64,000 bases of DNA from Rippkaea orientalis PCC 8801 (lineage in GTDB: Bacteria; Cyanobacteriota; Cyanobacteriia; Cyanobacteriales; Microcystaceae): the NCBI RefSeq assembly GCF_000021805.1, contig NC_011726.1, positions 2,510,097 to 2,574,096 of the forward strand. The letters run 5' to 3'. The notes below the pieces were generated by a model, which saw nothing but the letters and a program-made list of their open reading frames with translations, was not told the DNA's origin and did not search any database. The position numbers and the translations under genes are program-made. The stretch's first letter is position 1. Each line of letters begins with the position of its first letter. Below, one piece after another: positions 1,585-13,101 of the stretch.

Positions 1585-3711
1585 TTGTTAGCAGCCCTTC
1601 ATCTGTTACCTTACCCCAAGCCATTAAATCGGTTTATTAGCTTAGTCTTGAGTAGCCTGATTGTTATCATTTTATTGACTTTTACCATGTCGAGTGTTGG
1701 TGCCAATCAAACCGAAATTTTATGGGATACTTGGGGCGTTCCTCATCTTTATGCTCAGGATACAAAAAGTTTATTTAAAGCCTTTGGATGGGCACAAACT
1801 AAGAGTCATGGTAATTTAATTTTAAAACTCTATGGTCAAGCTAGGGGGAAAGCTGCTGAATACTGGGGCATTAATTATTTAGAATCCGATCAATATGTTA
1901 AAACAATGGGTATTCCTGCTAGGGCGCAAGAATGGTATCAACAACAAAGTCCCGAAATGCGGGAATATTTAGATTATTTTGCCACAGGAATTAATGATTA
2001 TGTCGCTCAACATCCCGATGAAATTGACGACTCAGTTAAATTAGTTTTACCGATTACTCCTACTGATATTTTAGCCCATCTACAAAGGGTAATTCACTTC
2101 CATTTTGTCACCAATCCTCAATCCGTTTCTTCCTTACAAACTATAGCCCCCCAAGGGGGATCAAACGGGTGGGTCATTGCCCCGGAAAAATCGGCTAGTA
2201 ATCACTCTATTTTATTAGCCAATCCCCATTTACCTTGGTCAGATTTTTATCTCTGGTATGAAGCCCACTTAAACGCTCCTGGGGTTAATAGTTATGGTGC
2301 AGCTTTAGTAGGAATGCCTGTCTTAGCCATTGCTTTTAATGATCACTTAGGTTGGACTGTTACCCTTAATCCAATTGATGGCGCAGATATGTATCAACTA
2401 ACCCTAAAAGATCAAGGATATCTTTGGGATGGAGAGGTCAAAAACTTTGAAACAAAAACTGAAACGGTCAAAATTCGTCAAGCAAATGGGAGTTATACAG
2501 AACTACAATTCGGGGTTAAACGCTCCATTCATGGGATAATTATTGCCCAAGAAAAAAACAAAGCTTTTGCCTTAAGAGTCGTCGGTTTAGATCATCCCCA
2601 CGGATTAAAACAATTGTGGGAAATGGCAAAATCTACTAACTTAGAACAATTTGAAAAGGGGTTAAAACAGTTACAAATTCCTTTGTTTAATTTTCTTTAT
2701 GCTGACCAAAAAGGACAGATTTTTTATCTATTTAATGGCTTGATTCCTAAACGCCCTCAAGGAAACTGGAATGACTGGCAAAAAATTATCCCTGGAGATA
2801 CCTCAAAAACCCTTTGGACTGAGTATCATAACTATGAAACGTTACCTCGTTTAGTTAATCCGAAAACGGGATGGTTACAAAATACCAATGATCCCCCCTG
2901 GACGAGTACTTATCCCCCCATTCTAGAAGCCAAAGATTATCCCCCTTATCTCGCCCCACCCTCCTTAAGCTATGCACCCAATATTTTGCGATCGCAGCGT
3001 TCTATTACCCTCCTAAAAGATTCAAAAAAACTCAGTTTTGAAGACGTAATTAATCATAAATTCTCGTCTAGATTATTAATGGCTGATCGTCTTTTAGAGA
3101 TTCTTATTCCCACAGCCAAAGCATTAGCTAACCCTATTGGCATAGAAGCAGTTAAAGTCCTAGAAAAATGGGATCGACAAACCAATATAGACAGTCGTGG
3201 AGCAGTACTTTTTACTCTTTGGGCGTTAACCTTAGAATCAAAGGGCATTTTTTCCCGTCCTTGGAACCCCGAAAACCCCTTAGAAACCCCCGCCGGGTTA
3301 GCCGATATTAATACAGCTTTAGCGGTTTTAGAAGGGGTAGCAGCGCAAGTTGAACTACTTTATGGTTCGTTAGATATCCCTTGGGGAGAAGTGGTTAAAA
3401 TGCGCTTTGGGGATAAGAGTATTCCAGCGAGTGGGGGACCTGGAAAATTAGGAAGTTTTCGCGTTTTAAATATTCAAGCAACGGCAGATGAAAAGTTTCA
3501 AGTTGTCTTTGGAGATAGTTTTATTGCTGTTGTCGAATTTTCTGATCCAATTCGGGCTAACGTATTAAATGTGTATGGTAATTCTAATCAGCCTAATTCA
3601 CCCCATCGGGGCGATCAATTATCCTTATATGCTGAGGGAAAAATGCGTCCAGTTTGGCGAAGTAAAGAAGAGGTTAAGAATCATTTAATTTTGGAGGAAT
3701 TGATTAGATAA
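1585..3711 (+). CDS. Penicillin-amidase-family Ntn hydrolase, an acyl-homoserine-lactone acylase-like protein of the PvdQ/AiiC/QuiP type
   Basis: 708-aa ORF. The N-terminus is hydrophobic and signal-like. The TTG at 1585 is the track start; ATG 1687 is an alternative start. The beta-subunit nucleophile motif GGSNGWVIAPEKSASNHSILLANPHLPW matches the SN...LLANPHxPW signature of AHL acylases. Confidence 0.85.
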   Translation: MLAALHLLPYPKPLNRFISLVLSSLIVIILLTFTMSSVGANQTEILWDTWGVPHLYAQDTKSLFKAFGWAQTKSHGNLILKLYGQARGKAAEYWGINYLESDQYVKTMGIPARAQEWYQQQSPEMREYLDYFATGINDYVAQHPDEIDDSVKLVLPITPTDILAHLQRVIHFHFVTNPQSVSSLQTIAPQGGSNGWVIAPEKSASNHSILLANPHLPWSDFYLWYEAHLNAPGVNSYGAALVGMPVLAIAFNDHLGWTVTLNPIDGADMYQLTLKDQGYLWDGEVKNFETKTETVKIRQANGSYTELQFGVKRSIHGIIIAQEKNKAFALRVVGLDHPHGLKQLWEMAKSTNLEQFEKGLKQLQIPLFNFLYADQKGQIFYLFNGLIPKRPQGNWNDWQKIIPGDTSKTLWTEYHNYETLPRLVNPKTGWLQNTNDPPWTSTYPPILEAKDYPPYLAPPSLSYAPNILRSQRSITLLKDSKKLSFEDVINHKFSSRLLMADRLLEILIPTAKALANPIGIEAVKVLEKWDRQTNIDSRGAVLFTLWALTLESKGIFSRPWNPENPLETPAGLADINTALAVLEGVAAQVELLYGSLDIPWGEVVKMRFGDKSIPASGGPGKLGSFRVLNIQATADEKFQVVFGDSFIAVVEFSDPIRANVLNVYGNSNQPNSPHRGDQLSLYAEGKMRPVWRSKEEVKNHLILEELIR

Positions 3712-3884: not shown

Positions 3885-4898
3885 ATGAAACGCCTAGTTG
3901 TTTGCTGTGACGGCACTTGGCAAGACCTCGAAAGTTCCTATCCTAGCAATGTGGTAAAATTAACTGAAGCGATCAAACCGATTGCTAGTGATGGAACACC
4001 ACAAATTGTCTTTTACGATGCGGGTATTGGAACAGAAAGTCAAAAGATTTCAGGAGGGGCTGCCGGAGTAGGCATCGACAGAAATATTCAAGATGGCTAT
4101 CGTTTCCTATGTCTGAACTACGTTGAAGGCGATGAAATCTATCTGTTTGGCTTTAGTCGTGGTGCCTATACCGTTAGGAGTTTAGCGGGAATGATCCACT
4201 GTTCAGGACTGCTCAAACGTTCCTACATAACCGATGCAGCAGAAGCCTACGAACTGTACCGAAACCGAGATATTAAACCCTCCGATCCCGAAGCGGTTAA
4301 GTACCGTAAAGTTCACGGTGATCGCGTCCCGATTACCCTGGTGGGGTGTTTTGATACGGTTGGAGCTTTAGGCCTCCCAGTCGTGCCACTGTTTCGGATG
4401 TTTAAGCCTTGGGTACACCGTCGCTATCAATTCTATGATACCACATTAAATCCAGATGTGCAGAATGCCCTGCACGCTGTGGCGATCGATGAGATTCGCG
4501 AAGTGTTTGATGTCACCCCCATGACTCCAAACCCCAAAGCTGAGAATCAACGGTTAATTCAAAAGTGGTTTCCAGGGGATCATGGGTGCGTTGGGGGAGG
4601 AACAGAAGCCTATCGCGGGCTGTCGGACGCGGCTTTAACATGGATGATTGATTCGATTGGTGACTTAGGATTAGGACTAGACTTTGATCTTAGTGCCATT
4701 CGCACGGGAATTAAGCTCGATTGTGAGTGTAACTTTAGCAATAAACCAGGGTTCTATCGATTAGCCGGAATCAAACTGCGTGAAGTAGGAGAAGCCCTTG
4801 AAGATCTTCATGACACAACCATTGAACGGTTGAAAAATCGTCCCGACTATCGACCCCCCAATCTAGAGAAAGTCATCCCCAAAATCGTGCAAAAGTAA
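3885..4898 (+). CDS. DUF2235 alpha/beta-hydrolase protein (Tle1 phospholipase-like fold)
   Basis: Hallmark N-terminal CCDGTW motif and the nucleophile-elbow-like GFSRGA motif. 337 aa. Confidence 0.8.
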   Translation: MKRLVVCCDGTWQDLESSYPSNVVKLTEAIKPIASDGTPQIVFYDAGIGTESQKISGGAAGVGIDRNIQDGYRFLCLNYVEGDEIYLFGFSRGAYTVRSLAGMIHCSGLLKRSYITDAAEAYELYRNRDIKPSDPEAVKYRKVHGDRVPITLVGCFDTVGALGLPVVPLFRMFKPWVHRRYQFYDTTLNPDVQNALHAVAIDEIREVFDVTPMTPNPKAENQRLIQKWFPGDHGCVGGGTEAYRGLSDAALTWMIDSIGDLGLGLDFDLSAIRTGIKLDCECNFSNKPGFYRLAGIKLREVGEALEDLHDTTIERLKNRPDYRPPNLEKVIPKIVQK

Positions 4899-4933
4899 GG
4901 TTTCTTAGTCCACGCTTTCTTCAAAAAAAGGAA

Positions 4934-6673
4934 TTGACTCCAATGTTCAAAGGCCTAAAAATAGCCTTACAGGCTGACACGGGCAGATGGTTTACTCGTT
5001 GTAATAACTGTCAACAAACCATAGGCAACAATCCTGATACCGTCACTGTTCATGTTGAAGGTTCTGTCTCGGAGCATCCCTACGCCCAATTTGAAGTCGT
5101 TGACGTAGGGAATGGGAAAATTGCTCTCAAAGCAGACACAGGGAAGTATGTAGGACGGTGTAATGGTTGCATCGTTGGGGGAGCCTATCCCGACTTTTTA
5201 ACCATTCATGTTGATGATCCTTCGATGCCATGGGCACAATTTACCCCCGAACGCTTAGCCAATGGCAAATATGCCTTTAAAGCCGATACGGGTAAGTATT
5301 TTGGTCGCTGTAACGGCTGTTCCCCCACCTCTGCCTATCCTGATACCGTCGCGGTTCACGTTGACAACCCTCATAATTCCCCGTGGGCTCAGTGGACAGT
5401 GAGTTATGTCCCGTTTTCCTATTTGGAGAGATACGACGCTATTCCGGCGGATAATGTTGCCGAAAAAGCGAAATTAGTCGGACGAGCCATGGCCACTGAC
5501 TCGCGTAACTTCTTTAAGGAATTACGCGCGAATCGTCCCATTTTTATCACCCCTAAATTCGTTCTGGTAACGTTATTTCCTGACGTACAAGAAGTTTTCT
5601 CCCGTCCCGAAGTGTTCTCCGTGAGATTGTATGCCCCGAAAATGGACCCCAATCATGGTCCGGCAATGCTCTCTAGAGATAATACAGTCTATAACTGGCG
5701 AGAAAAATCCATCATGAAAACCATGTTGGACTGGGAAGACTTACCAAGAATCAAACAAGCGGCCGGAGAAGTAGCCAAAGCTGCGTTAGATAAGTTTGCT
5801 CCCACCAAAAAAATCGAAACCGTCAATGAGTTGGCTAAATGGGTTTTAGTCAGGATGAGTGGGGATTATTATGGCTTTCCCGGTCCTGACCGAGAAACGA
5901 TGTATCGCTGGTCAAGTGCTACCCAAAGTGGGATGTTGAGAAATTTGGCCAATGATCCCCAAATCCATGAAGCCTCCGTGCAAGCCGGGAAAGAAATGCG
6001 GGATTATCTGACCCAACTGTTGCAACAGAAAAAAGCCAATAATACCCCATCTACTGCCCCTAAAGACATTTTCACCCGATTAGTTCAAGCAAATTTGACT
6101 AGCGACATTCCCTTTGACGAGAGCCGAATCCTCACCAATATGGCACTGTTGCTCATTTCTACCCTAGATACCACGGCTCAAGCGATTGTTCAGTCTCTAG
6201 AACAACTGTTGCGTCGTCCCGATATTCTGCCTAAAGCGGTAGCAGCAGCTAAGGCCAATGATGATGTAACCTTCGCTAAGTATGTTTGGGAAGCCTTGCG
6301 CTTTAACCCTGTCAGTCCCGCACTGCCTCGCTTTTGTGAGTCAGACTATACTGTGGCTGCTGGAACCTCCAGAGCGACCCGTATCCCTGCGAATAGCTTG
6401 GTTTTAGTCAGTCTCGGTTCGGCGATGATGGATGGCGCGATCGTTCAAAATCCTGAGCAATTTTCCATCGAACGGCCAAAACACAACTATATGCACTATG
6501 GTTATGGCGATCATACCTGTTTGGGTGAACATATTGGCAATGTGGTTGTTTCTGAAGTCATTAAACAAGTTTTACTTCGTCCAGGGGTAAGGTTGATTCC
6601 TGGGGATGAAGGAAAACTACAAGCTCAACCGAATGCCATTCTTAAAAGTTTTGTCATTGCCTATGACGGATAA
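4934..6673 (+). CDS. Fusion protein: N-terminal triple-repeat beta-trefoil (fascin-like) domain plus C-terminal cytochrome P450 domain
   Basis: Three repeats of about 48 aa (KADTGKY.GRCNGC...PDT..VHVD.P...WAQF). The C-terminal 410 aa carry P450 motifs: I-helix STLDTTAQ, K-helix EALR (ExxR), meander PEQFSIER, and heme loop YGYGDHTCLGEHIG (FGxGxHxCxG). Confidence 0.8.
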   Translation: MTPMFKGLKIALQADTGRWFTRCNNCQQTIGNNPDTVTVHVEGSVSEHPYAQFEVVDVGNGKIALKADTGKYVGRCNGCIVGGAYPDFLTIHVDDPSMPWAQFTPERLANGKYAFKADTGKYFGRCNGCSPTSAYPDTVAVHVDNPHNSPWAQWTVSYVPFSYLERYDAIPADNVAEKAKLVGRAMATDSRNFFKELRANRPIFITPKFVLVTLFPDVQEVFSRPEVFSVRLYAPKMDPNHGPAMLSRDNTVYNWREKSIMKTMLDWEDLPRIKQAAGEVAKAALDKFAPTKKIETVNELAKWVLVRMSGDYYGFPGPDRETMYRWSSATQSGMLRNLANDPQIHEASVQAGKEMRDYLTQLLQQKKANNTPSTAPKDIFTRLVQANLTSDIPFDESRILTNMALLLISTLDTTAQAIVQSLEQLLRRPDILPKAVAAAKANDDVTFAKYVWEALRFNPVSPALPRFCESDYTVAAGTSRATRIPANSLVLVSLGSAMMDGAIVQNPEQFSIERPKHNYMHYGYGDHTCLGEHIGNVVVSEVIKQVLLRPGVRLIPGDEGKLQAQPNAILKSFVIAYDG

Positions 6674-6848
6674 ATGAAGTCACAAAGGGTAGGGGTTTAA
6701 TATTATTGAACTCCTACGACTGCTGACGCTTACTCATGCGTAGCAAACCTAAACGCGATTTCTTATTAGATTTTAGGGTTGAATTTTTTAACCCTTGTCT
6801 AAACAATCAGTCAAAGTATCAAGATCAATTCAGGAGGATTGATTCATT

Positions 6849-8855
6849 ATGTCTACCAAAACAAAGACAATTTTCGATGAAATAAAAGCTGCTTTGGTAT
6901 TGAAAGTCATCGATAGCCCTTTGGGACGGAAATTAATCGAAGAAAAAGCGGAGAAACAAGTCTCTAAAACCCAAGAGGCTATCACCAAACCCATCGAACA
7001 GTTGAATAAAGCAACGGGTCAATTACTCTTTAGTGATACCAATAAGCCTTTACATAACATCGAATTAGAGGTGTGGGACAGAGATGTCGGGACACCAAGT
7101 GATTATTTAGGGAAGGGAGTAACGGATCAAAATGGTCGCTTTGAAATTTACTACGATCCTGAAAAAGCCGGGTTTAAAGATGCGCCGGATTTAGAATTAA
7201 GGGTCATCGATAATCGTGTTACCTTTGATAGCGACAATCAACCTGTTTATACTAATCGCATCGCCTATATTATCAAAGGTGGGGACAATGTAACCCAAAA
7301 AACCTATGATTTCGGGACGTTAACGGTTCCTTACTGGCCTTACGATCCTAACAGTCCCTTTGCGCGGATCTTCATGCCAAATCCTGAAGAAACCCCCGAT
7401 GATTACTCCGTAGGACGCAAATTTCAAGCCTATGCCTCGGCTAATGTTCTCACCCCCATTAAAGCCAAGCATACTATCGCTAATACCCTAAACCCGAAAG
7501 AACCTAGTTTGACCCAAATTCAAGCAGATTATCCCCCCAATTTAACCATCAATTTAGATCGGGAAAAACCCGGATATACCCGCAGTGATGAGTATTTTGT
7601 TTTGCGGGTTCTCAATGGCATGAATCCTTGTTTGCTCAAACGCAGTAAAAGCGATCCCAATCAGTTTAAGATGAGTTTTATTTGGGATAACTACGAAAAA
7701 GATACGGAACACGATCTTCATAATGTAGAGGCCTATTTTGTCTTAAAAGATGGCAAACTTTTCCCGACAATGATCACCATTCAAAGTCGCTATCCAGATT
7801 CTTTGGCTCCCCATTCTCCTCTGAAAGATCGGGAAGTGTATACTCCCAATGATGGGGAAAAATGGTTACAAGCTAAACGGATTTTCCGGACGGCTGCTTT
7901 ATTTGACGGAGAAGCGATCGAGCATTATGCTAAGGCTCATGTGCAGATGGAACAGTATGCGGTAGCTTGTTTCCGTAATCTACGCAAAAACCCCATCCGT
8001 TTGATGTTAACTCCCCATTTAAAGAGCATTATTAATATTAATCGCCGTGGGGATGATTTACTGGTAGAACCGAACCTTGGCTTATTTGTGACTAACGGTC
8101 CGTTAACCTATCCAGGGTTCTTGCAAATGTGTACGGAAGTAGTGGCAACCTACGACTGGAAAGACTGGCAACCCCGTCAACCTATCTGCGACGATCATAA
8201 GTACGCTAAGGCAGCGAATCTCTACTGGCAGATTTTAACCGAATATGTTGACGCATTTTTTGCGAAGCATCAACAAGCGATCGCGGATGAATGGGTAGAA
8301 ATTCGCCGTTTTTCTGAGGATTTAGTCGAACATAGTATGCCCTATCAACCCATTGAGGGCATTATGGCGAATACCGATAGTGATTACGAATGGTATGATA
8401 CAGGGGAATTGGATAAGCCTGATCTTCCCAGAGCGACGTTTAATGGCAAGACTAAGGTAATTCGACCGATTACTAACTCTAATCAACCAAGTGCCACGGA
8501 TATCGACAATTTAAAACAATGTTGCCGTCATATCATCTTCCATACGACTTTGTGGCACACTTGGGTTAACGATTCTCAGTCCGATGAGGGGGGAGAATTG
8601 GCTTATAATTCCCTAGCGTTACGCAATGGTAGTTTTGGTAGTGAAACTGATCCTAACATCGCCCCTGATCCCATAGAAGCAACCAATCAGGTTTATATCT
8701 TCAGTGTCTTAAATGGCATTAAGTACGGCTTATTGGTGAAAAATGAGGATGATGATGTGCCTGAAGAGTTAAGAACGGCTTTGCTCAATCGCAAGGATCA
8801 ATTTGCTGAATTAGGCATCGATATTGGCAATATTCGCACTTTAATTAATATTTAG
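6849..8855 (+). CDS. Iron lipoxygenase (prokaryotic LOX without a PLAT domain)
   Basis: 668 aa. Contains HYAKAH (His-x4-His) and HTWVND (His-x3-Asn) iron-ligand motifs with LOX spacing. The protein ends in a C-terminal Ile (..TLINI), the expected fifth iron ligand. Confidence 0.85.
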   Translation: MSTKTKTIFDEIKAALVLKVIDSPLGRKLIEEKAEKQVSKTQEAITKPIEQLNKATGQLLFSDTNKPLHNIELEVWDRDVGTPSDYLGKGVTDQNGRFEIYYDPEKAGFKDAPDLELRVIDNRVTFDSDNQPVYTNRIAYIIKGGDNVTQKTYDFGTLTVPYWPYDPNSPFARIFMPNPEETPDDYSVGRKFQAYASANVLTPIKAKHTIANTLNPKEPSLTQIQADYPPNLTINLDREKPGYTRSDEYFVLRVLNGMNPCLLKRSKSDPNQFKMSFIWDNYEKDTEHDLHNVEAYFVLKDGKLFPTMITIQSRYPDSLAPHSPLKDREVYTPNDGEKWLQAKRIFRTAALFDGEAIEHYAKAHVQMEQYAVACFRNLRKNPIRLMLTPHLKSIININRRGDDLLVEPNLGLFVTNGPLTYPGFLQMCTEVVATYDWKDWQPRQPICDDHKYAKAANLYWQILTEYVDAFFAKHQQAIADEWVEIRRFSEDLVEHSMPYQPIEGIMANTDSDYEWYDTGELDKPDLPRATFNGKTKVIRPITNSNQPSATDIDNLKQCCRHIIFHTTLWHTWVNDSQSDEGGELAYNSLALRNGSFGSETDPNIAPDPIEATNQVYIFSVLNGIKYGLLVKNEDDDVPEELRTALLNRKDQFAELGIDIGNIRTLINI

Positions 8856-8865
8856 TGCATCAGTG

Positions 8866-8890
8866 GGGTGGGGCGTTCCCACCCTATTTT
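8866..8890 (+). terminator. Rho-independent terminator candidate after the lipoxygenase gene
   Basis: Stem gggtggg/cccaccc (7 bp) with loop gcgtt, followed by tatttt. Confidence 0.5.
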
Positions 8891-8950
8891 AATATCTCAC
8901 ACAACTAATTTTGCGTGATACTGGTTAGCTAGATAGAAAATTTCGATAAT

Positions 8951-9217
8951 ATGGAGATAGAATGGAACAACGATAAAGCTGCCTCAAATGTGATCAAACA
9001 TAACATTGATTTTGAGGATGCGAAAAACATTTTTTTAGCTCCAAACCGCCTTGAAAGAGAAGATAAACGTAATTATAATGAAACTAGAATACAAGTTATT
9101 GGTATAGTGAATCAAGTAGTTTTATTTGTTGTCTATCCCAAAAGAGAAAACAGATATCGTATTATTTCAGCACGAAGAGCCAATAAAAATGAACGACAAC
9201 AATATTACCAGAGTTAA
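8951..9217 (+). CDS. brnT: BrnT-family (DUF497) toxin
   Basis: 88 aa. Motifs EWNNDKAASNVIKHNIDFEDA... and VVYPKRENRYRIISARRANKNER match the BrnT consensus. Confidence 0.7.
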   Translation: MEIEWNNDKAASNVIKHNIDFEDAKNIFLAPNRLEREDKRNYNETRIQVIGIVNQVVLFVVYPKRENRYRIISARRANKNERQQYYQS

Positions 9218-9380
9218 ACTCGATCCTAAAAATCCTACTCAGGGTAAGACAAATTGGGTTAAAGTTAAAGCAATGACTGAAGAAGAAATTGAACAAGCAG
9301 CCAAAAACGATTCAGATTGTTTACCCTTGTCTCAAAAAGAATTAAATGAATTTCGCCGTATAATGGAGAAGTCAGATTAG
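9189..9380 (+). CDS. brnA: BrnA-type antitoxin (BrnA_antitoxin/DUF4415-like)
   Basis: ATG 9189 overlaps the end of brnT. Sequence ..TNWVKVKAMTEEEIEQAAKNDSDCLPLSQKELNEFRR matches the BrnA antitoxin family. The track ORF 9126 is an upstream extension in the same frame. Confidence 0.65.
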   Translation: MNDNNITRVKLDPKNPTQGKTNWVKVKAMTEEEIEQAAKNDSDCLPLSQKELNEFRRIMEKSD

Positions 9381-9386
9381 TCAGAG

Positions 9387-11879
9387 ATGATTGCTTCTAA
9401 TTTTATTGTTACTGAACTGTTTCATCAAAGTGGAGAAGCAGGAGAAAGGGTTGTTTGGGAAGCGATACAAAGGGTATTTTATGGGCGAGAATGTCTGGCT
9501 TATTGGCGTTATCCTCTGTTTTTAGGAAAGGGAAAATTTCGCAAAGAACCTGATATTTTAATCGCCGATAGGGAACTGGGTTTAATTATTATTGAAGTTA
9601 AGTCTATTAAAATTAATCAGATTATTAGTATTCAAGGACATCGTTGGCAATATAAAAATTTTTATACTAAATTTGGCAATCCCTATCAACAAGCAGAAAA
9701 TCAGTTATTTGCTTTGTTAGATTATGCTAAAACCGAACCAAGTTTAGATAATCAAGTAACAGGTAGGGTAATGGTTGCTTTACCTTTAATTACTCAACAA
9801 CAATGGCAAGAAAAAGAGTTTGATAAACTTCCTAGTAATCCTCCAATTTTATTTAAAAATTCTCTAGACTCATCGGCTTTATTGTTTGAATTGATTGAAA
9901 AAACAACGCCTGTTCTTAAAAGAGAAAAATTGAGCAATCAACAATGGGAATTACTCACTTCTATTCTATCAGGAACACCTGTTTTAAGTCAACCCATTCA
10001 TCGGGTATTGAGTGGTTCTCAAAGTCGTGGCAAGGTTTTACAAGAATTGCGATCGCAGGTAAGTCAATTGGATTTACAACAGGAAAAAATTGCCAAACAA
10101 ATACCACCAGGGTGTCAAAGAATTAGGGGAATAGCGGGGTCAGGAAAAACGGTTTTACTGTGTCAAAAAGTGGCAATTATGCACCTTAAATATCCGCAGT
10201 GGAAAATTGCCTTTGTCTTTTTTTCGCGTAGTCTTTATGAGGAAATTACCACCCACATTGATCGCTGGATTCGCTATTTTAGTCATAATCAACAAGGCTA
10301 TGATCCCAATAATCGTAACTTACGGGTTTTTCATGCTTGGGGTTCAGAGAAAAAGTTGGGGTTTTATCGATTTGTTTCTCAAGTCTGTGGAAAAACGCCT
10401 TTAAGTGTTAATCAAACAACTCGACAAAAACCTAATGAAGCATTAGGAGAAGTTTGTTATGATTTATTGAATAAAACAGGCATTCCTCAGATTTTTGATG
10501 CTATTTTGATTGATGAAGGACAAGACTTAATGGTTGATCATTGGCACTATCAAGGTAAACAACCTTTTTATTGGTTAGCCTATCAATCTTTACGTCCAGT
10601 TAATTCTATCTATCCTGAACAAAAACGGTTAATTTGGGCTTATGATGAAGTCCAAAGTTTAGACAGTTTAAAAATGCCAACAGCTAGGGAAATGTTTGGA
10701 GAAGAATTAGGTCATTTAGTCACCGGAAAGCATTTTAATGGGATTAATAAAACTGAGGTAATGTGCCGTTGTTATCGAACGCCTCATCCGATTATTATTG
10801 CTGCTCACGCGATGGTAATGGGATGGTTACGTCCTGAAGGAATGTTAACGGGAATGAGGCATAAAGAAGAATGGCAAGCATTAGGCTATGAAGTTACGGG
10901 AGAGTTGATTTCAGGCAATAATATTATTATCAAAAGACCGAAAGAAAATTCTCCTAACCCTTTGCCTTATTTATGGAAAGATGATTTAATTAAGTTTGAG
11001 ATTTATTCATCAAGACAACAGGAAATGAGTGCTTTATATCGCCATCTTAAACACAATTTACGCCAGGATGGTTTACGTCCGAGTAAAGAGATTTTAGTGA
11101 TTGTTTTAGGAGAATTTTTTGAGGCAGCAAATTTACAAAAAAATATTGCTAATTTTTTAATCAGACAAGGAATTGATATTTTTATTCCTGGGACAAAAGA
11201 TTGTAATATTCTAACTCATGAAAGTGAGGAAAATTGTGATCAATTTTGGTGTGCTGGTGGGGTAACAATTTCGCGTATTTATCAAGCGAAGGGACAGGAA
11301 GCTGATCAAGTTTATATTATTGGATTAGATCACATTGCGGAAGAGGAAAGTAATTTATCGTTACGCAATCAATTATTTATTGCTTTGACGCGATCGCGGG
11401 GGTGGGTTAATATTAGTGGTATTGGCAATTACCCTCTTTATCAAGAATTACAAAATGTCTTAAACAATGGCGATACTTTTTCCGTTACGTTTGCTGAACC
11501 TCAACAACGAGAAATTATCGGAACCGATGAAGGAGAATTATTAAAAAGCTATAGTTTAGGGAGAAGAAATTTTGAACAAGCAGCGTTACAAAATGCACAA
11601 TTAAATAGAGTTAATTTAAGCGATATTAATCTCATTGGAGCAAATTTATCGGGAGCAAGATTTAACTATACTAATCTTAATCGTGCTAAATTAATAGCAG
11701 CGAATTTACAAGGGGCTGATTTAACAGGAGCCAGTTTAATTAAAGCTAAATTGATGGGGGCTAATTTAAAAGGAGCAAATTTACAAGAGGCTGATTTAAC
11801 ACAAGCAGATTTAAGTAATGTAGACTTAACAGGGGCATTAGTCGAACCAGAACAATTAGAAAAGGCTATTTTTGAATAA
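9387..11879 (+). CDS. NERD domain + SF1 (UvrD-like) helicase + C-terminal pentapeptide-repeat fusion protein
   Basis: N-terminal NERD signature EPDILIADRELGLIIIEVKS. Walker A GIAGSGKT and Walker B LIDEGQD. The C-terminal approximately 130 aa are A(N/D)LxGA pentapeptide repeats. Confidence 0.8.
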   Translation: MIASNFIVTELFHQSGEAGERVVWEAIQRVFYGRECLAYWRYPLFLGKGKFRKEPDILIADRELGLIIIEVKSIKINQIISIQGHRWQYKNFYTKFGNPYQQAENQLFALLDYAKTEPSLDNQVTGRVMVALPLITQQQWQEKEFDKLPSNPPILFKNSLDSSALLFELIEKTTPVLKREKLSNQQWELLTSILSGTPVLSQPIHRVLSGSQSRGKVLQELRSQVSQLDLQQEKIAKQIPPGCQRIRGIAGSGKTVLLCQKVAIMHLKYPQWKIAFVFFSRSLYEEITTHIDRWIRYFSHNQQGYDPNNRNLRVFHAWGSEKKLGFYRFVSQVCGKTPLSVNQTTRQKPNEALGEVCYDLLNKTGIPQIFDAILIDEGQDLMVDHWHYQGKQPFYWLAYQSLRPVNSIYPEQKRLIWAYDEVQSLDSLKMPTAREMFGEELGHLVTGKHFNGINKTEVMCRCYRTPHPIIIAAHAMVMGWLRPEGMLTGMRHKEEWQALGYEVTGELISGNNIIIKRPKENSPNPLPYLWKDDLIKFEIYSSRQQEMSALYRHLKHNLRQDGLRPSKEILVIVLGEFFEAANLQKNIANFLIRQGIDIFIPGTKDCNILTHESEENCDQFWCAGGVTISRIYQAKGQEADQVYIIGLDHIAEEESNLSLRNQLFIALTRSRGWVNISGIGNYPLYQELQNVLNNGDTFSVTFAEPQQREIIGTDEGELLKSYSLGRRNFEQAALQNAQLNRVNLSDINLIGANLSGARFNYTNLNRAKLIAANLQGADLTGASLIKAKLMGANLKGANLQEADLTQADLSNVDLTGALVEPEQLEKAIFE

Positions 11880-11901
11880 TGAACCATTAACCAGTCAAAA
11901 A

Positions 11902-13101
11902 TTAGAAAAAATCTGGCATCCAAGGAGTAGAACCTGAGAAAATAATTGTAGCAGCTTCAATAGCGTCTGGTGTTGCGTCAAGATCACCTAATAACTGAAG
12001 TTGAATTGGGGTAAATAAACCTGTATAAAGGGAAGCTAAACCCCGTATATTGAGGCGAAAATTGCATTTTCCTCCAGGGGTTACTTCCCCACATCCTTGG
12101 GAAACTCGCAAGCAAAATTTACCATTATTGGCAACAATTAGATCATCAGTTATTTCTAAGTGTAATTCTGTTTCTATGCCTTGAGGATAGCCTCGTTTTG
12201 ATAAGGCTAAAGGCACATTAACAACTCTTAACATCCAACGTTTTTGATACTTGATTTTAGCTGTTTGTTCAGGTAATAATAACAAAGTTGAATCCATCGG
12301 TGAACTTCGCCACTGTACTTGACTAGCCAAAGAACGATGAGCAGCCATAAAAGACCAGAAATGTTTAACTGAATCAGACGTTAATAACACCCAATCTTTG
12401 AGGATTAAATTTAATCCATTAGTTCCTTTTTCTTGAGTAAAAATAACATAACCTTCGGGTTGATTTTTCTCTCCAATAAGATAAGCATAGCTCTCTTGTT
12501 TACCTTGCACTTCTAGGGTTTTTTGCCAAATAGCAAAATTGCGATCTAAATTACCATTATTTTTTCTAGCTTGTTGTTGATAAATTGCTTCAAATTGTTC
12601 ATAATTAATAGGAGAAATAGACGTAATAGGGAGATTCTTCTCTGAAATTTGAATTGTATCAGTAGGTAACTCCCAAAGACAATAACTTCCCCCTTGTTCA
12701 TATCCAACTTTCCGATAAAGAACTTGAGTCGCTGGATAGAGGACAGAAATGGGATATCCTGAGTGATAAAGTTCCTCTAAGGTATGACTCAAAAGTTGGA
12801 ATGCAACTCCTTTTCCACGATGTTCTGGTGCAACTCCTACGGCAGCAATACCAGCCATTGGGATAAGATTTTCTCCATACCATTGTCCCATAAAATAAAT
12901 AGCTAAACCCGCAATTACTTGATCATTGTGATGAAGAATACGAAAATTTTGGCTACCAATACGATTAAAATAAGTTTCTGATTCTGTCAGAAATTCCGCA
13001 AAACATTGACTGATTAGTTTTTTAATTTGTTGTTCGTCTTCAGGATGACGCAGAGAACTGTAGTTAAGGGAGAATGTCATACCTTTCCAATCGTTACACA
13101 A
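11902..13101 (-). CDS. GNAT acetyltransferase, Eis-like two-domain architecture
   Basis: 399 aa. Acetyl-CoA binding-like motif VAPEHRGKGVAFQLL in the N-terminal half. Confidence 0.6.
   Translation of the reverse strand: MCNDWKGMTFSLNYSSLRHPEDEQQIKKLISQCFAEFLTESETYFNRIGSQNFRILHHNDQVIAGLAIYFMGQWYGENLIPMAGIAAVGVAPEHRGKGVAFQLLSHTLEELYHSGYPISVLYPATQVLYRKVGYEQGGSYCLWELPTDTIQISEKNLPITSISPINYEQFEAIYQQQARKNNGNLDRNFAIWQKTLEVQGKQESYAYLIGEKNQPEGYVIFTQEKGTNGLNLILKDWVLLTSDSVKHFWSFMAAHRSLASQVQWRSSPMDSTLLLLPEQTAKIKYQKRWMLRVVNVPLALSKRGYPQGIETELHLEITDDLIVANNGKFCLRVSQGCGEVTPGGKCNFRLNIRGLASLYTGLFTPIQLQLLGDLDATPDAIEAATIIFSGSTPWMPDFF

Follow-up and report, generated by a model that had tools for sequence, protein, structure and literature searches.

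Does a cyanobacterial cytochrome P450 that is fused to a beta-trefoil and keeps a canonical I-helix act as a monooxygenase, or does it process a lipid hydroperoxide made by a neighbouring enzyme? The question is raised by an open reading frame on the + strand, spanning 4934–6673 of a 64,000-nucleotide stretch of genomic DNA (hereafter the window), whose product is 100% identical to the 576-residue NCBI protein ACK66447.1 (UniProt B7K2Q4) of Rippkaea orientalis / Cyanothece PCC 8801. The reading frame given by the first-pass annotation was correct, but its start was not: the ATG at 4943 is likelier than the TTG at 4934, because an AGGA precedes the former by 10 nt and the homologues begin there, with MLKGLKIALQ. 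The features on which our analysis rests are as follows.

3885–4898, + strand: Tle1-like (DUF2235) alpha/beta-hydrolase lipase/phospholipase, ACK66446.1 (Pfam PF09994, E = 6.5e-80)
4929–4932, + strand: Shine-Dalgarno-like AGGA, 10 nt 5′ of ATG 4943 (read from the sequence)
4943–5410, + strand: beta-trefoil domain, residues 1–156 (repeat statistics, AF2, Foldseek, Pfam FRG1)
5411–6673, + strand: cytochrome P450 domain, residues 157–576, and the stop codon (Pfam p450, AF2, Foldseek)
6143–6190, + strand: I-helix segment ALLLISTLDTTAQAIV, residues 401–416, with the acid-alcohol pair D409-T410 (translation)
6491–6529, + strand: haem-thiolate loop MHYGYGDHTCLGE, residues 517–529, with C526 as the proposed haem ligand (translation)
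6849–8855, + strand: CspLOX1 lipoxygenase, ACK66448.1 (identical to PDB 5EK8_A over 668/668 residues)
8863–8882, + strand: terminator-like GC-rich hairpin, 8 nt past the LOX stop codon, a candidate transcription-unit end (consensus scan)

Analysis of the N-terminal region revealed the three internal repeats that had been proposed for it. Each is about 50 residues long and contains ADTGK[YW], RCN[GN]C, and [YW]AQ[FW], and their pairwise identities are 47%, 48%, and 60% (z of 11–19 against shuffled sequences). Structure prediction had been suggested as a check of the trefoil, and an AF2 model of residues 1–156 gave 12 strands, four per repeat, with a pLDDT of 94.8 and a pTM of 0.89. The top PDB matches of this model upon Foldseek search were all beta-trefoils (FRG1, CBM92, Symfoil, and fascin), with E-values of about 1e-7, TMq of 0.6–0.7, and identities of 13–24%, and the near folds also include the Tpp80Aa1 toxin. 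In the full-length AF2 model, the P450 part was mostly above a pLDDT of 90 while the trefoil part fell below 50, because only seven aligned sequences cover it. The isolated trefoil scored 26.8 bits against Pfam FRG1 (cut-off 27), and homologues such as P0072 score over the Pfam cut-offs of both FRG1 and Fascin. Its six cysteines (C20/C23, C73/C76, and C123/C126) are invariant among 29 trefoil homologues. The repeats, the 12 predicted strands, and the Pfam p450 match confirm that a beta-trefoil and a cytochrome P450 are joined in one protein. The combination is unusual, as had been claimed, with the trefoil present in only 7 of the 120 homologues listed.

Assignment of the trefoil to the ricin-type (QxW)3 lectins, or CBM13, was rejected, as the repeats end in AQF, AQF, and AQW, with the aromatic residue directly after Q. 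A Pfam search with the window trefoil returned no RicinB match, and one oomycete homologue scored 25.7 bits against RicinB_lectin_2, whose cut-off is 25.6.

The P450 domain follows the trefoil practically without a linker, and homologues consisting of the P450 alone begin with MSYLEQYD, which corresponds to residues 158–165 of the fusion. The domain matches Pfam p450 (PF00067) with an E-value of 3.7e-20 and 72.6 bits against a cut-off of 22.8. The description of a complete P450 held up: the I-helix, ExxR (E450/R453), PEQF...R (P504...R511), and the Cys loop were all found. Among 63 family members, G520, G522, H524, and C526 of the Cys loop are invariant, as are E450, R453, and R511, and P504/F507 are kept in at least 90%. 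The Cys loop is of canonical length and has no CYP74-type insertion. In the I-helix, S406-T407-L408-D409-T410-T411 aligns to the AGLDT of CYP143 (LLILAGLDTV), so the Thr pair is retained here, unlike in CYP74, as the first-pass annotation had stated. The acid residue of this helix is invariant over the family and the alcohol position is often Thr or Ser; no Asn replacing the Thr was seen in the family variation examined at this site. However, the alcohol position is Gly in five of the nine relatives linked to a lipoxygenase (LOX) only, and judging from these sequences the closest, LOX-linked clade can do without the canonical alcohol of this helix.

The best Foldseek matches of the P450 were CYP134A1, CYP142, and P450BioI, with a TMt of about 0.85 (range 0.80–0.87) and identities of 18–20%, and the nearest PDB sequences listed were bacterial class-I P450s (E of about 1e-20). 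Membership in CYP74 or CYP8A was rejected: the motifs speak against it, and neither family appears in the top PDB sequence matches or the 50 best Foldseek matches listed. The best NCBIfam match was a cyclodipeptide-synthase-associated P450 subfamily, at 73 bits against a cut-off of 500. One homologue has been automatically annotated as 'pulcherriminic acid synthase'.

Two neighbouring genes had escaped the first-pass annotation. The Tle1-like lipase gene, whose product contains a GFSRG serine motif, stops 44 bp 5′ of the start of the trefoil-P450, and CspLOX1 follows after a gap of 175 bp, all three genes being on the same strand. CspLOX1 is a linoleate 9R-lipoxygenase whose product is 9R-HPODE (PMC5437038). 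The consensus scan found no terminator-like site in either the Tle1-P450 or the P450-LOX gap; the hairpin after the LOX is only suggestive, such sites being no more numerous hereabouts than chance would give. A PvdQ-like acylase further upstream (1585–3711) was considered as a fourth member and rejected, its homologue being found in none of 87 related loci. The window, searched for them, holds no DUF6841/NTF2-like gene, second LOX, or COX-like gene. On balance, we take the Tle1-like lipase, the trefoil-P450, and CspLOX1 to be a candidate three-gene oxylipin cassette, in which the lipase is the first gene and the presumed supplier of free fatty acid, and CspLOX1 the last gene.

No reductase or ferredoxin gene had been noticed nearby, and our search bore this out. 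The neighbouring ORFs of at least 100 residues to a distance of 20 kb belong to unrelated families, except for one that lacks a Pfam match. When the window was translated in all six frames and scanned for Cys motifs, no ORF resembling a ferredoxin turned up near the cluster. Nor is a ferredoxin, reductase, or flavodoxin conserved in the actinobacterial loci that were screened as representatives. A conservation screen of all ORFs at three actinobacterial loci returned a desaturase and one unknown gene, and no ferredoxin. In Actinocorallia an FMN_red-like gene immediately precedes the P450 homologue; it was rejected as a conserved redox partner, being confined to that species. A general ferredoxin and FNR are abundant in cyanobacteria, so a missing neighbouring redox gene is weak evidence by itself.

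The family to which this P450 belongs was more informative. A scan of the genomes of 185,579 species with one conserved peptide pattern yielded 443 confirmed related loci. The P450 has a dioxygenase-type neighbour in 74 of the 80 related loci surveyed. In 66 of them this is a COX-like haem dioxygenase, always encoded on the P450 strand and lying a median of 54 bp downstream; six have a LOX, which in one locus accompanies a COX-like gene, and three have a di-haem cytochrome c. These loci are spread over cyanobacteria, actinobacteria, planctomycetes, acidobacteria, and proteobacteria. The scanned genes of the six loci without a dioxygenase neighbour match no oxygenase or peroxidase family, several having no Pfam match. 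The one COX-like partner examined, that of Actinocorallia, matched COX-2 with an E-value of 7e-70 and keeps the Tyr385/His388 motif EFNLLYRWH. The cassette is also found in Nostoc, Aphanothece, Crocosphaera, Dolichospermum, Okeania, and Cyanothece BG0011, and a Tle1-like lipase homologue is upstream of the P450 in five of the six LOX-linked loci of the genome scan, as well as in two further loci (L001 and L004). A fatty-acid desaturase gene lies divergently upstream elsewhere in the family; the Streptosporangium example has the Pfam FA_desaturase domain, and its sequence was found again in 56 loci. The LOX-linked P450s fall into a single clade, which is nested within cyanobacterial members whose partners are COX-like or di-haem. 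Identity to those members is still 55–59%, and the partner was therefore swapped without remodelling of the P450.

Fusions point in the same direction. Of the best 150 cluster representatives, roughly one in four is a multi-domain fusion. Three proteins (P0066, P0133, and P0155) join an N-terminal P450 to a C-terminal COX-like dioxygenase, at least seven clusters fuse a DyP peroxidase to the P450, and others carry GST, NTF2-like, or SnoaL domains. No reductase or ferredoxin domain was fused to the family P450s among those sampled. A Lipase_3 gene adjoins one of the DyP-P450 fusions. The family is thus nearly always beside, or fused with, a fatty-acid dioxygenase, and here the gene is adjacent to a LOX. 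We are therefore confident that this P450 belongs to a fatty-acid dioxygenase pathway, and its likely role is to process the lipid hydroperoxide of the LOX.

An unrelated role, such as tailoring of a secondary metabolite beside a LOX that is there by chance, would fit the NCBIfam match, the 'pulcherriminic acid synthase' annotation, and the 6 of 80 loci with no recognisable dioxygenase neighbour. However, the other 74 loci come from several phyla and mostly have the neighbour some 50 bp away or less, on the P450 strand; such enzymes are also found covalently fused, and the loci read for gene content contain no cyclodipeptide synthase gene. Given the census, chance adjacency is close to refuted, and we give it hardly any credence. 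A more serious rival keeps the P450 in the same oxylipin pathway but as a class-I monooxygenase, which would take electrons from the general ferredoxin/FNR and add hydroxyl or epoxide groups to the free fatty acid or to the reduced LOX product, 9-HODE, giving di- or tri-oxygenated fatty acids. The canonical D409-T410-T411 with its CYP143 alignment, the invariant acid with Thr or Ser common beside it, the canonical Cys loop, ExxR, and PERF motifs, the ferredoxin-dependent monooxygenases as nearest sequences and folds, and the FMN_red-like gene of the Actinocorallia relative are all consistent with it. Yet a redox-partner gene is conserved in none of the loci screened, FMN_red being found in one species, and most of the closest LOX-linked relatives have Gly instead of the alcohol residue. 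Moreover, the fusions sampled are repeatedly to haem enzymes that form hydroperoxides or use peroxides, and none is to a reductase or ferredoxin. To our knowledge, and in line with PMC13049297, all known dedicated dioxygenase-companion P450s (CYP74, CYP5A1, CYP8A1, and the fungal LDS/AOS/EAS) use the hydroperoxide directly. We consider the monooxygenase reading unlikely, and lean slightly towards a P450 that would take the hydroperoxide as its direct substrate, free of a redox partner.

The trefoil has also to be weighed as a metal-binding or redox module, for instance a rubredoxin-like knuckle, that feeds or regulates the P450 and, likewise, multicopper oxidases. The invariance of its six CxxC cysteines in 29 homologues would suit such a module, as would weak Pfam zinc-ribbon and rubredoxin-knuckle matches at the CxxC motifs and the fact that both enzyme fusion partners found for it, P450 and multicopper oxidase, are redox enzymes. 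But those matches are far under threshold and cover about 10 residues, and three CxxC motifs misfit a standard Cys4 site; the Pfam zinc-finger, zinc-ribbon, and YwqJ matches on trefoil homologues, local to the CxxC motif, were judged spurious. In myxobacteria the module stands alone in tandem copies, preceded by N-termini that resemble signal peptides, and it is found too in oomycete proteins, one carrying a hydrophobic segment at its C-terminus. For proteins of these kinds, disulfides together with a binding function are the commoner reading. The multicopper-oxidase fusions of the module bear TAT signals. A redox role is very improbable. It is plausible that the trefoil binds carbohydrate or lipid, the nearest folds including the lectin-type CBM92 and the Tpp80Aa1 toxin. 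That it is a rare accessory targeting module is possible, and we suggest this tentatively.

In the pathway that we propose, the lipase would release linoleate or alpha-linolenate from membrane glycerolipids. CspLOX1 would convert the fatty acid to the 9R-hydroperoxide, a reaction shown experimentally by others for the isolated enzyme. The hydroperoxide might then be bound at the ferric haem of the P450 and rearranged or dehydrated, with no need for O2, NADPH, or a redox partner, in the manner of CYP74, CYP5A/8A, and the fungal DOX-CYPs. The outcome could be an epoxy alcohol, an allene-oxide or LTA-type epoxide, a diol, or cleavage products; an epoxide type is weakly favoured, given that NTF2-like and GST domains are repeatedly found beside or fused to the P450s. 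A PDB sequence search with the NTF2-like neighbour gave no match. The trefoil may be a late and rare addition, a binding or targeting module that could, for example, keep the P450 at the surface of a membrane or glycolipid, with its substrate entrance on that side. The full O2-activating D409-T410-T411 of the trefoil-P450, read from its sequence, counts against hydroperoxide processing, as does its resemblance in sequence and predicted fold to ferredoxin-dependent class-I P450s and not to CYP74/CYP8A. Adjacency of genes leaves the order and chemistry of the reactions undefined, and a simple dioxygenase-then-P450 scheme gives no account of the DyP-peroxidase fusions. The context, that is, the lipase and CspLOX1 and the pairing and fusions of the family, shifts the balance towards hydroperoxide processing without proving it.

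More broadly, there may exist a hitherto unrecognised and widespread bacterial clan of self-sufficient dioxygenase-companion P450s, independent in origin of CYP74, CYP5A/8A, and the fungal DOX-CYPs. With a canonical I-helix, its members would work downstream of LOX, COX-like haem dioxygenases, di-haem cytochrome c, and perhaps DyP, three or four sources of hydroperoxide that are unrelated to one another, and a small cyanobacterial subclade would have gained a trivalent, lectin-like trefoil that docks to thylakoid galactolipid membranes, where the substrate is generated. We regard this full picture as conjectural and, taken as a whole, somewhat doubtful. The data point to a bacterial counterpart, from another P450 lineage, of plant LOX to CYP74, animal COX to CYP5A/8A, and fungal DOX-CYP. 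The system is present in dozens of the actinomycete genomes examined (Nonomuraea, Streptosporangium, and relatives), with a COX homologue and a dedicated desaturase. If hydroperoxide chemistry does proceed with the acid-alcohol pair kept, the common assumption that the pair is lost in such P450s would be called into question, and new bacterial oxylipins and biocatalysts would come within reach.

For CspLOX1, a crystallised enzyme that has served as a model bacterial lipoxygenase, the neighbouring P450 and lipase offer a concrete, testable pathway. The papers on CspLOX1 that were read assign no physiological pathway to it, and the literature searches returned no paper on the trefoil-P450 or its P450 family. 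No described precedent was found for the trefoil-P450 architecture, which may show how soluble bacterial P450s reach membrane-derived substrates.

The proposed system resembles that of plant CYP74 (AOS, HPL, and divinyl ether synthase) in that a P450 would act after a LOX, in the order lipase, LOX, P450, with no dedicated redox partner. The CYP74 clan has lost the I-helix Thr, has an Asn-containing 'hydroperoxide-binding' I-helix, and carries an extra insertion in the Cys-ligand loop. In contrast, the trefoil-P450 keeps the acid-alcohol pair, has no Cys-loop insertion, and is of another lineage and fold neighbourhood, with no CYP74 among the 50 best Foldseek matches listed. The LOX beside it, a 9R enzyme, belongs to a divergent bacterial type, and any CYP74-like activity of the P450 is putative.

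The fungal DOX-P450 fusions (LDS/PpoA, 8R/9S-DOX-AOS, and EAS) and animal COX with CYP5A1/CYP8A1 likewise pair a fatty-acid dioxygenase, haem or non-haem, with a companion P450, and most relatives of the trefoil-P450 are beside or fused to a COX homologue. In the fungal enzymes the dioxygenase is N-terminal and the P450 C-terminal, whereas in the bacterial fusions the P450 comes first. The trefoil-P450 itself differs from the fungal enzymes in its N-terminal trefoil, in being unfused to a dioxygenase, and in having a LOX as partner, and from both the fungal and animal systems in having no Asn for Thr in the I-helix. The class-I P450s CYP143, CYP142, CYP134A1/CypX, and CYP107H1/BioI are its closest solved relatives and share all canonical motifs, but their Foldseek identity is 18–20% and none has a trefoil; we know of none reported as a dioxygenase companion. 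As for the trefoil, it has the 12 strands and three repeats of FRG1, fascin, and CBM92, but differs from them in its own signature of ADTGK[YW], RCNGC, and [YW]AQ[FW] in each repeat and in the six invariant cysteines. Nothing suggests an actin-binding role, as in fascin, or a spliceosomal one, as in FRG1.

A 2026 review of the known dioxygenase-companion systems (PMC13049297) describes for bacteria a catalase-related partner only and no companion P450; it is an enzyme of this catalase-related kind that is known to convert the hydroperoxide of the Nostoc 10S-DOX. Such converters (Nostoc punctiforme 10S-DOX and lyase, Acaryochloris catalase-LOX, and that of coral) differ from the P450 in the fold of the haem protein and in tyrosinate instead of thiolate ligation, but they too are encoded beside or fused to the dioxygenase. 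Both arrangements stand side by side at one locus, L009, where a LOX paired with a family P450 is accompanied by a COX-like gene, and the protein encoded after the latter matches catalase weakly, at a score under the threshold.

The plus-strand open reading frame spans 4934-6673 in the window. The ATG at 4943, which has AGGA 10 nt 5′ of it, is almost certainly the true start of the trefoil-P450 gene, and the product matches at 100% identity a 576-aa database protein (ACK66447.1 / WP_012595714.1 / UniProt B7K2Q4) of Rippkaea orientalis (formerly Cyanothece sp.) PCC 8801. Two neighbours absent from the first-pass annotation, a Tle1-like lipase gene and the lipoxygenase (LOX) gene CspLOX1, form a cassette with it:

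3885-4898, plus strand: Tle1-like/DUF2235 lipase gene (Pfam E 6.5e-80)
4943-6673, plus strand: trefoil-P450 gene
6849-8855, plus strand: lipoxygenase gene CspLOX1, named by identity to PDB 5EK8

There are 44 bp between the end of the lipase gene and the P450 gene, and the LOX gene starts 175 bp 3′ of the latter. The window lipoxygenase is identical to PDB 5EK8 (CspLOX1) across all 668 residues, and CspLOX1 is a linoleate 9R-lipoxygenase whose product is 9R-HPODE (PMC5437038). A terminator-like hairpin was found 3′ of the LOX stop codon and none in the lipase-P450 or P450-LOX gap, but this evidence is weak, since the region has no more hairpins of this kind than chance would give.

Our analysis upheld the complete P450 claimed in the first-pass annotation. 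Residues 157–576 match Pfam with an E of 3.7e-20 and contain the I-helix ALLLISTLDTTAQAIV, aligned with LLILAGLDTV of CYP143, as well as ExxR, a PERF-type motif and the Cys loop MHYGYGDHTCLGE. The AlphaFold2 pLDDT of this domain is mostly >90. Its closest folds are CYP134A1, CYP142, P450BioI and CalO2 (TMt about 0.85), and neither CYP74 nor CYP8A is among the 50 best fold matches listed.

The N-terminal trefoil proposed in the same annotation was also confirmed, by repeat statistics, an AlphaFold2 model and Foldseek matches; the Pfam FRG1 score, 26.8 bits, falls just short of the cut-off of 27. Residues 1–156 form three repeats, each with ADTGK[YW], RCN[GN]C and [YW]AQ[FW], whose pairwise identity is 47-60% (z = 11-19 against shuffles). 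The model, built with 29 homologues, has a pLDDT of 94.8, a pTM of 0.89 and 12 strands, four per repeat. Foldseek against the PDB returned beta-trefoils only, the best being FRG1 (8i0w chain 2, 2yug), the Tpp80Aa1 toxin, CBM92, designed Symfoils and fascin (E 1e-7 to 1e-5, TMq 0.6-0.7). P450-only homologues start with MSYLEQYD, which aligns with residues 158-165, so the trefoil is joined to the P450 with essentially no linker. Across the trefoil homologues, six cysteines in total and an Asp in every repeat show little or no variation:

4943-5410, within the trefoil-P450 gene: three CxxC motifs, one in each repeat where strand 2 ends (Cys aa 20, 23, 73, 76, 123, 126)

These cysteines may form disulfides or be purely structural, and a metal or redox role for them seems unlikely to us. 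With a conserved putative site in each of its repeats, the trefoil would match a multivalent binder of the lectin type.

The trefoil-P450 fusion is rare (7 of the 120 listed homologues); L001, L002 and L008 have it too and fall into two sub-branches within the LOX-linked clade (L numbers denote genomic loci of P450 relatives, P numbers homologous proteins or cluster representatives). Beyond it, the trefoil was found at 50-72% identity in three further settings: at the C-terminus of cyanobacterial multicopper oxidases with TAT signals (P0104-P0111; Pfam match to the signal in the one protein checked), in tandem in myxobacterial proteins with signal-peptide-like N-termini (P0056/P0067/P0072/P0089), and in oomycete proteins (P0094/P0103/P0105), one with a hydrophobic C-terminal segment. 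This spread suggests that the trefoil is a portable binding module. Several trefoil-only proteins carry a wrong 'cytochrome P450' annotation.

Gene-context look-up recovered the cassette in three further forms:

Nostoc UHCC 0702: Tle1, trefoil-P450, DUF1304, LOX
Aphanothece sacrum: trefoil-P450, DUF6841, LOX, Lipase_3
Nostoc CHAB 5844: Tle1, DUF6841, trefoil-less P450, LOX

A scan with one conserved peptide pattern over one genome per species (185,579 species) gave 443 confirmed related loci, the best 80 of which entered a tblastn partner census. A downstream LOX was found in six of the 80, all cyanobacterial, five of them with an upstream Tle1 lipase. A COX-like An_peroxidase was present in 66, always on the same strand and a median of 54 bp downstream, in hosts including cyanobacteria, Singulisphaera and dozens of Nonomuraea, Streptosporangium and Actinomadura genomes; one locus had both LOX and COX-like genes. 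Three loci carry a di-haem cytochrome c that contains a RoxA-like domain, and context look-up added two more; the remaining six of the 80 had no LOX, COX-like or di-haem neighbour. The COX-like partner of Actinocorallia, the single one checked, matches COX-2 (E 7e-70) and keeps EFNLLYRWH, the motif holding the catalytic Tyr385 and the proximal His388, and is therefore of the dioxygenase type rather than a plain peroxidase. The di-haem partner scored 532 bits against NCBIfam 'di-heme cytochrome c peroxidase', and the oleate 10S-dioxygenase and diol synthase of Pseudomonas are proteins of this type (PMC4496055). The di-haem-linked P450s, from Pyrinomonadaceae, Azospirillum, a Prochloraceae MAG and Allosphingosinicella, and other loci are as follows:

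L005 5131-6822, L007 1-1482, L020 and L035: di-haem-linked P450 loci
L041 (actinomycete cassette): desaturase 8501-9670, minus strand; P450 10001-11248; COX-like gene 11302-12849
L009 10001-17328: P450, DUF1304, LOX, COX-like gene, then a weak sub-threshold catalase match
L013 8439-17601: Tle1, DUF6841, P450, a second unrelated P450, LOX, a small ORF without Pfam match, a second LOX

L009 and L013 are larger cyanobacterial oxylipin clusters. In the actinomycete cassette (L021-L087), carried by dozens of Nonomuraea, Streptosporangium, Actinomadura and Sphaerisporangium genomes, a divergent desaturase precedes the P450, after which come a homologue of COX-2 and an unknown gene conserved in ~55 loci. 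The membrane fatty-acid desaturase gene, divergently upstream of the P450, was found by sequence in 56 loci, mostly actinobacterial, with a Pfam FA_desaturase match for the Streptosporangium example. This cassette looks like an undescribed oxylipin pathway.

In a neighbour-joining tree without support values, the LOX-linked P450s form one clade, nested among cyanobacterial P450s with COX-like or di-haem partners, to which they are 55-59% identical. This indicates that the dioxygenase partner was exchanged without much change in the P450. In this tree, the nearest neighbours of the window P450 come from Crocosphaera XPORK-15E (L008) and a Coleofasciculaceae MAG (L009).

To find fusions of the P450, 1.84 billion cluster representatives were searched with a profile; 1,169 matched at E ≤ 1e-30, and 35 of the best 150 of these exceed 550 aa. 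An N-terminal P450 followed by a COX-like domain was identified by Pfam in P0066, P0133 and P0155, DyP peroxidase then P450 in at least seven clusters of ~825-955 aa (P0168, P0190, P0208, P0235, P0239, P0249, P0257), and GST then P450 in P0180, P0198 and P0240. At one DyP-P450 locus (L088 6001-8868), a Lipase_3 gene lies 650 bp downstream. NTF2-like, SnoaL or DUF6841 domains are joined at either end (for example P0162, P0038, P0128, P0086), and DUF6841 also occurs as free-standing neighbours:

L004 7243-7641: free-standing DUF6841
L002 9790-10191: free-standing DUF6841

Domain architecture, LOX identity, conserved gene neighbourhood and fusions were observed directly. In the proposed pathway the lipase would release polyunsaturated fatty acid in free form; the P450 would act on the LOX hydroperoxide, isomerising or dehydrating it without external electrons. 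We lean towards such a hydroperoxide transformation by the window P450. No ferredoxin, reductase or flavodoxin is conserved in the related loci screened, and no P450 fused to reductase or ferredoxin was found among the sampled family members. That the P450 is instead a ferredoxin-dependent monooxygenase in the same pathway we consider less likely. The retained D409-T410-T411 of the window P450 and the acid invariant across the family do weigh against our preferred reading. The alcohol position is Thr or Ser in most members, although it is Asn in a few and Gly in five of the nine LOX-only-linked P450s. Thromboxane synthase keeps the acid and has lost the Thr relative to CYP3A, which is a lead and not a test. 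Minor alternatives share the remaining probability.

As for the fate of the hydroperoxide, the fact that NTF2-like and GST domains keep recurring as partners is a hint that the P450 product is of the epoxide type and that another step handles epoxide or peroxide. Enzymes with an NTF2-like fold include epoxide hydrolases, cyclases and isomerases; the opening of epoxides and the reduction of hydroperoxides are known GST reactions. The window itself has no GST or NTF2-like gene.

In arrangement, the window cassette is functionally like plant LOX with CYP74, animal COX with CYP5A1/CYP8A1, and the fungal DOX-CYP fusions, and the P450 arrangement resembles the catalase-related partners of cyanobacterial LOX and 10S-DOX (PMC13049297, PMC11719350). 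The window P450 lacks the defining motifs of and relatedness to CYP74 and thus lies outside it, and the protein falls outside the fungal fusion family since its architecture differs. A 2026 minireview on dioxygenases and P450 companions gives a catalase-related lyase as the only bacterial partner (PMC13049297), and, outside the CspLOX1 structure paper, our literature search, which included accession numbers, found no published account of the window P450. We rate the window protein as a putative dioxygenase-companion P450 of a different lineage with an unprecedented trefoil fusion.

Two flanking genes are not conserved with the cassette in related loci:

1585-3711, plus strand, just upstream: PvdQ-like acylase, an Ntn-hydrolase (penicillin amidase family, acyl-homoserine-lactone acylase type) with a hydrophobic N-terminus
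9387-11879, downstream: 830-aa protein with NERD nuclease-related and UvrD-like helicase C-terminal domains and C-terminal pentapeptide repeats, an unusual combination

A weak Pfam transthyretin-like (TTR-52) match, not PLAT, lies at CspLOX1 aa 65-102 (window 6849-7150) and is also recorded for the orthologue of Nostoc CHAB 5844. The cassette region may be a mobile island. Its G+C (4001-8000) is 0.47 and 0.43 per 2 kb against 0.36-0.40 in the flanks, and the cassettes of Okeania (L012) and Nostoc (L001) contain or adjoin IS605-type transposase genes.
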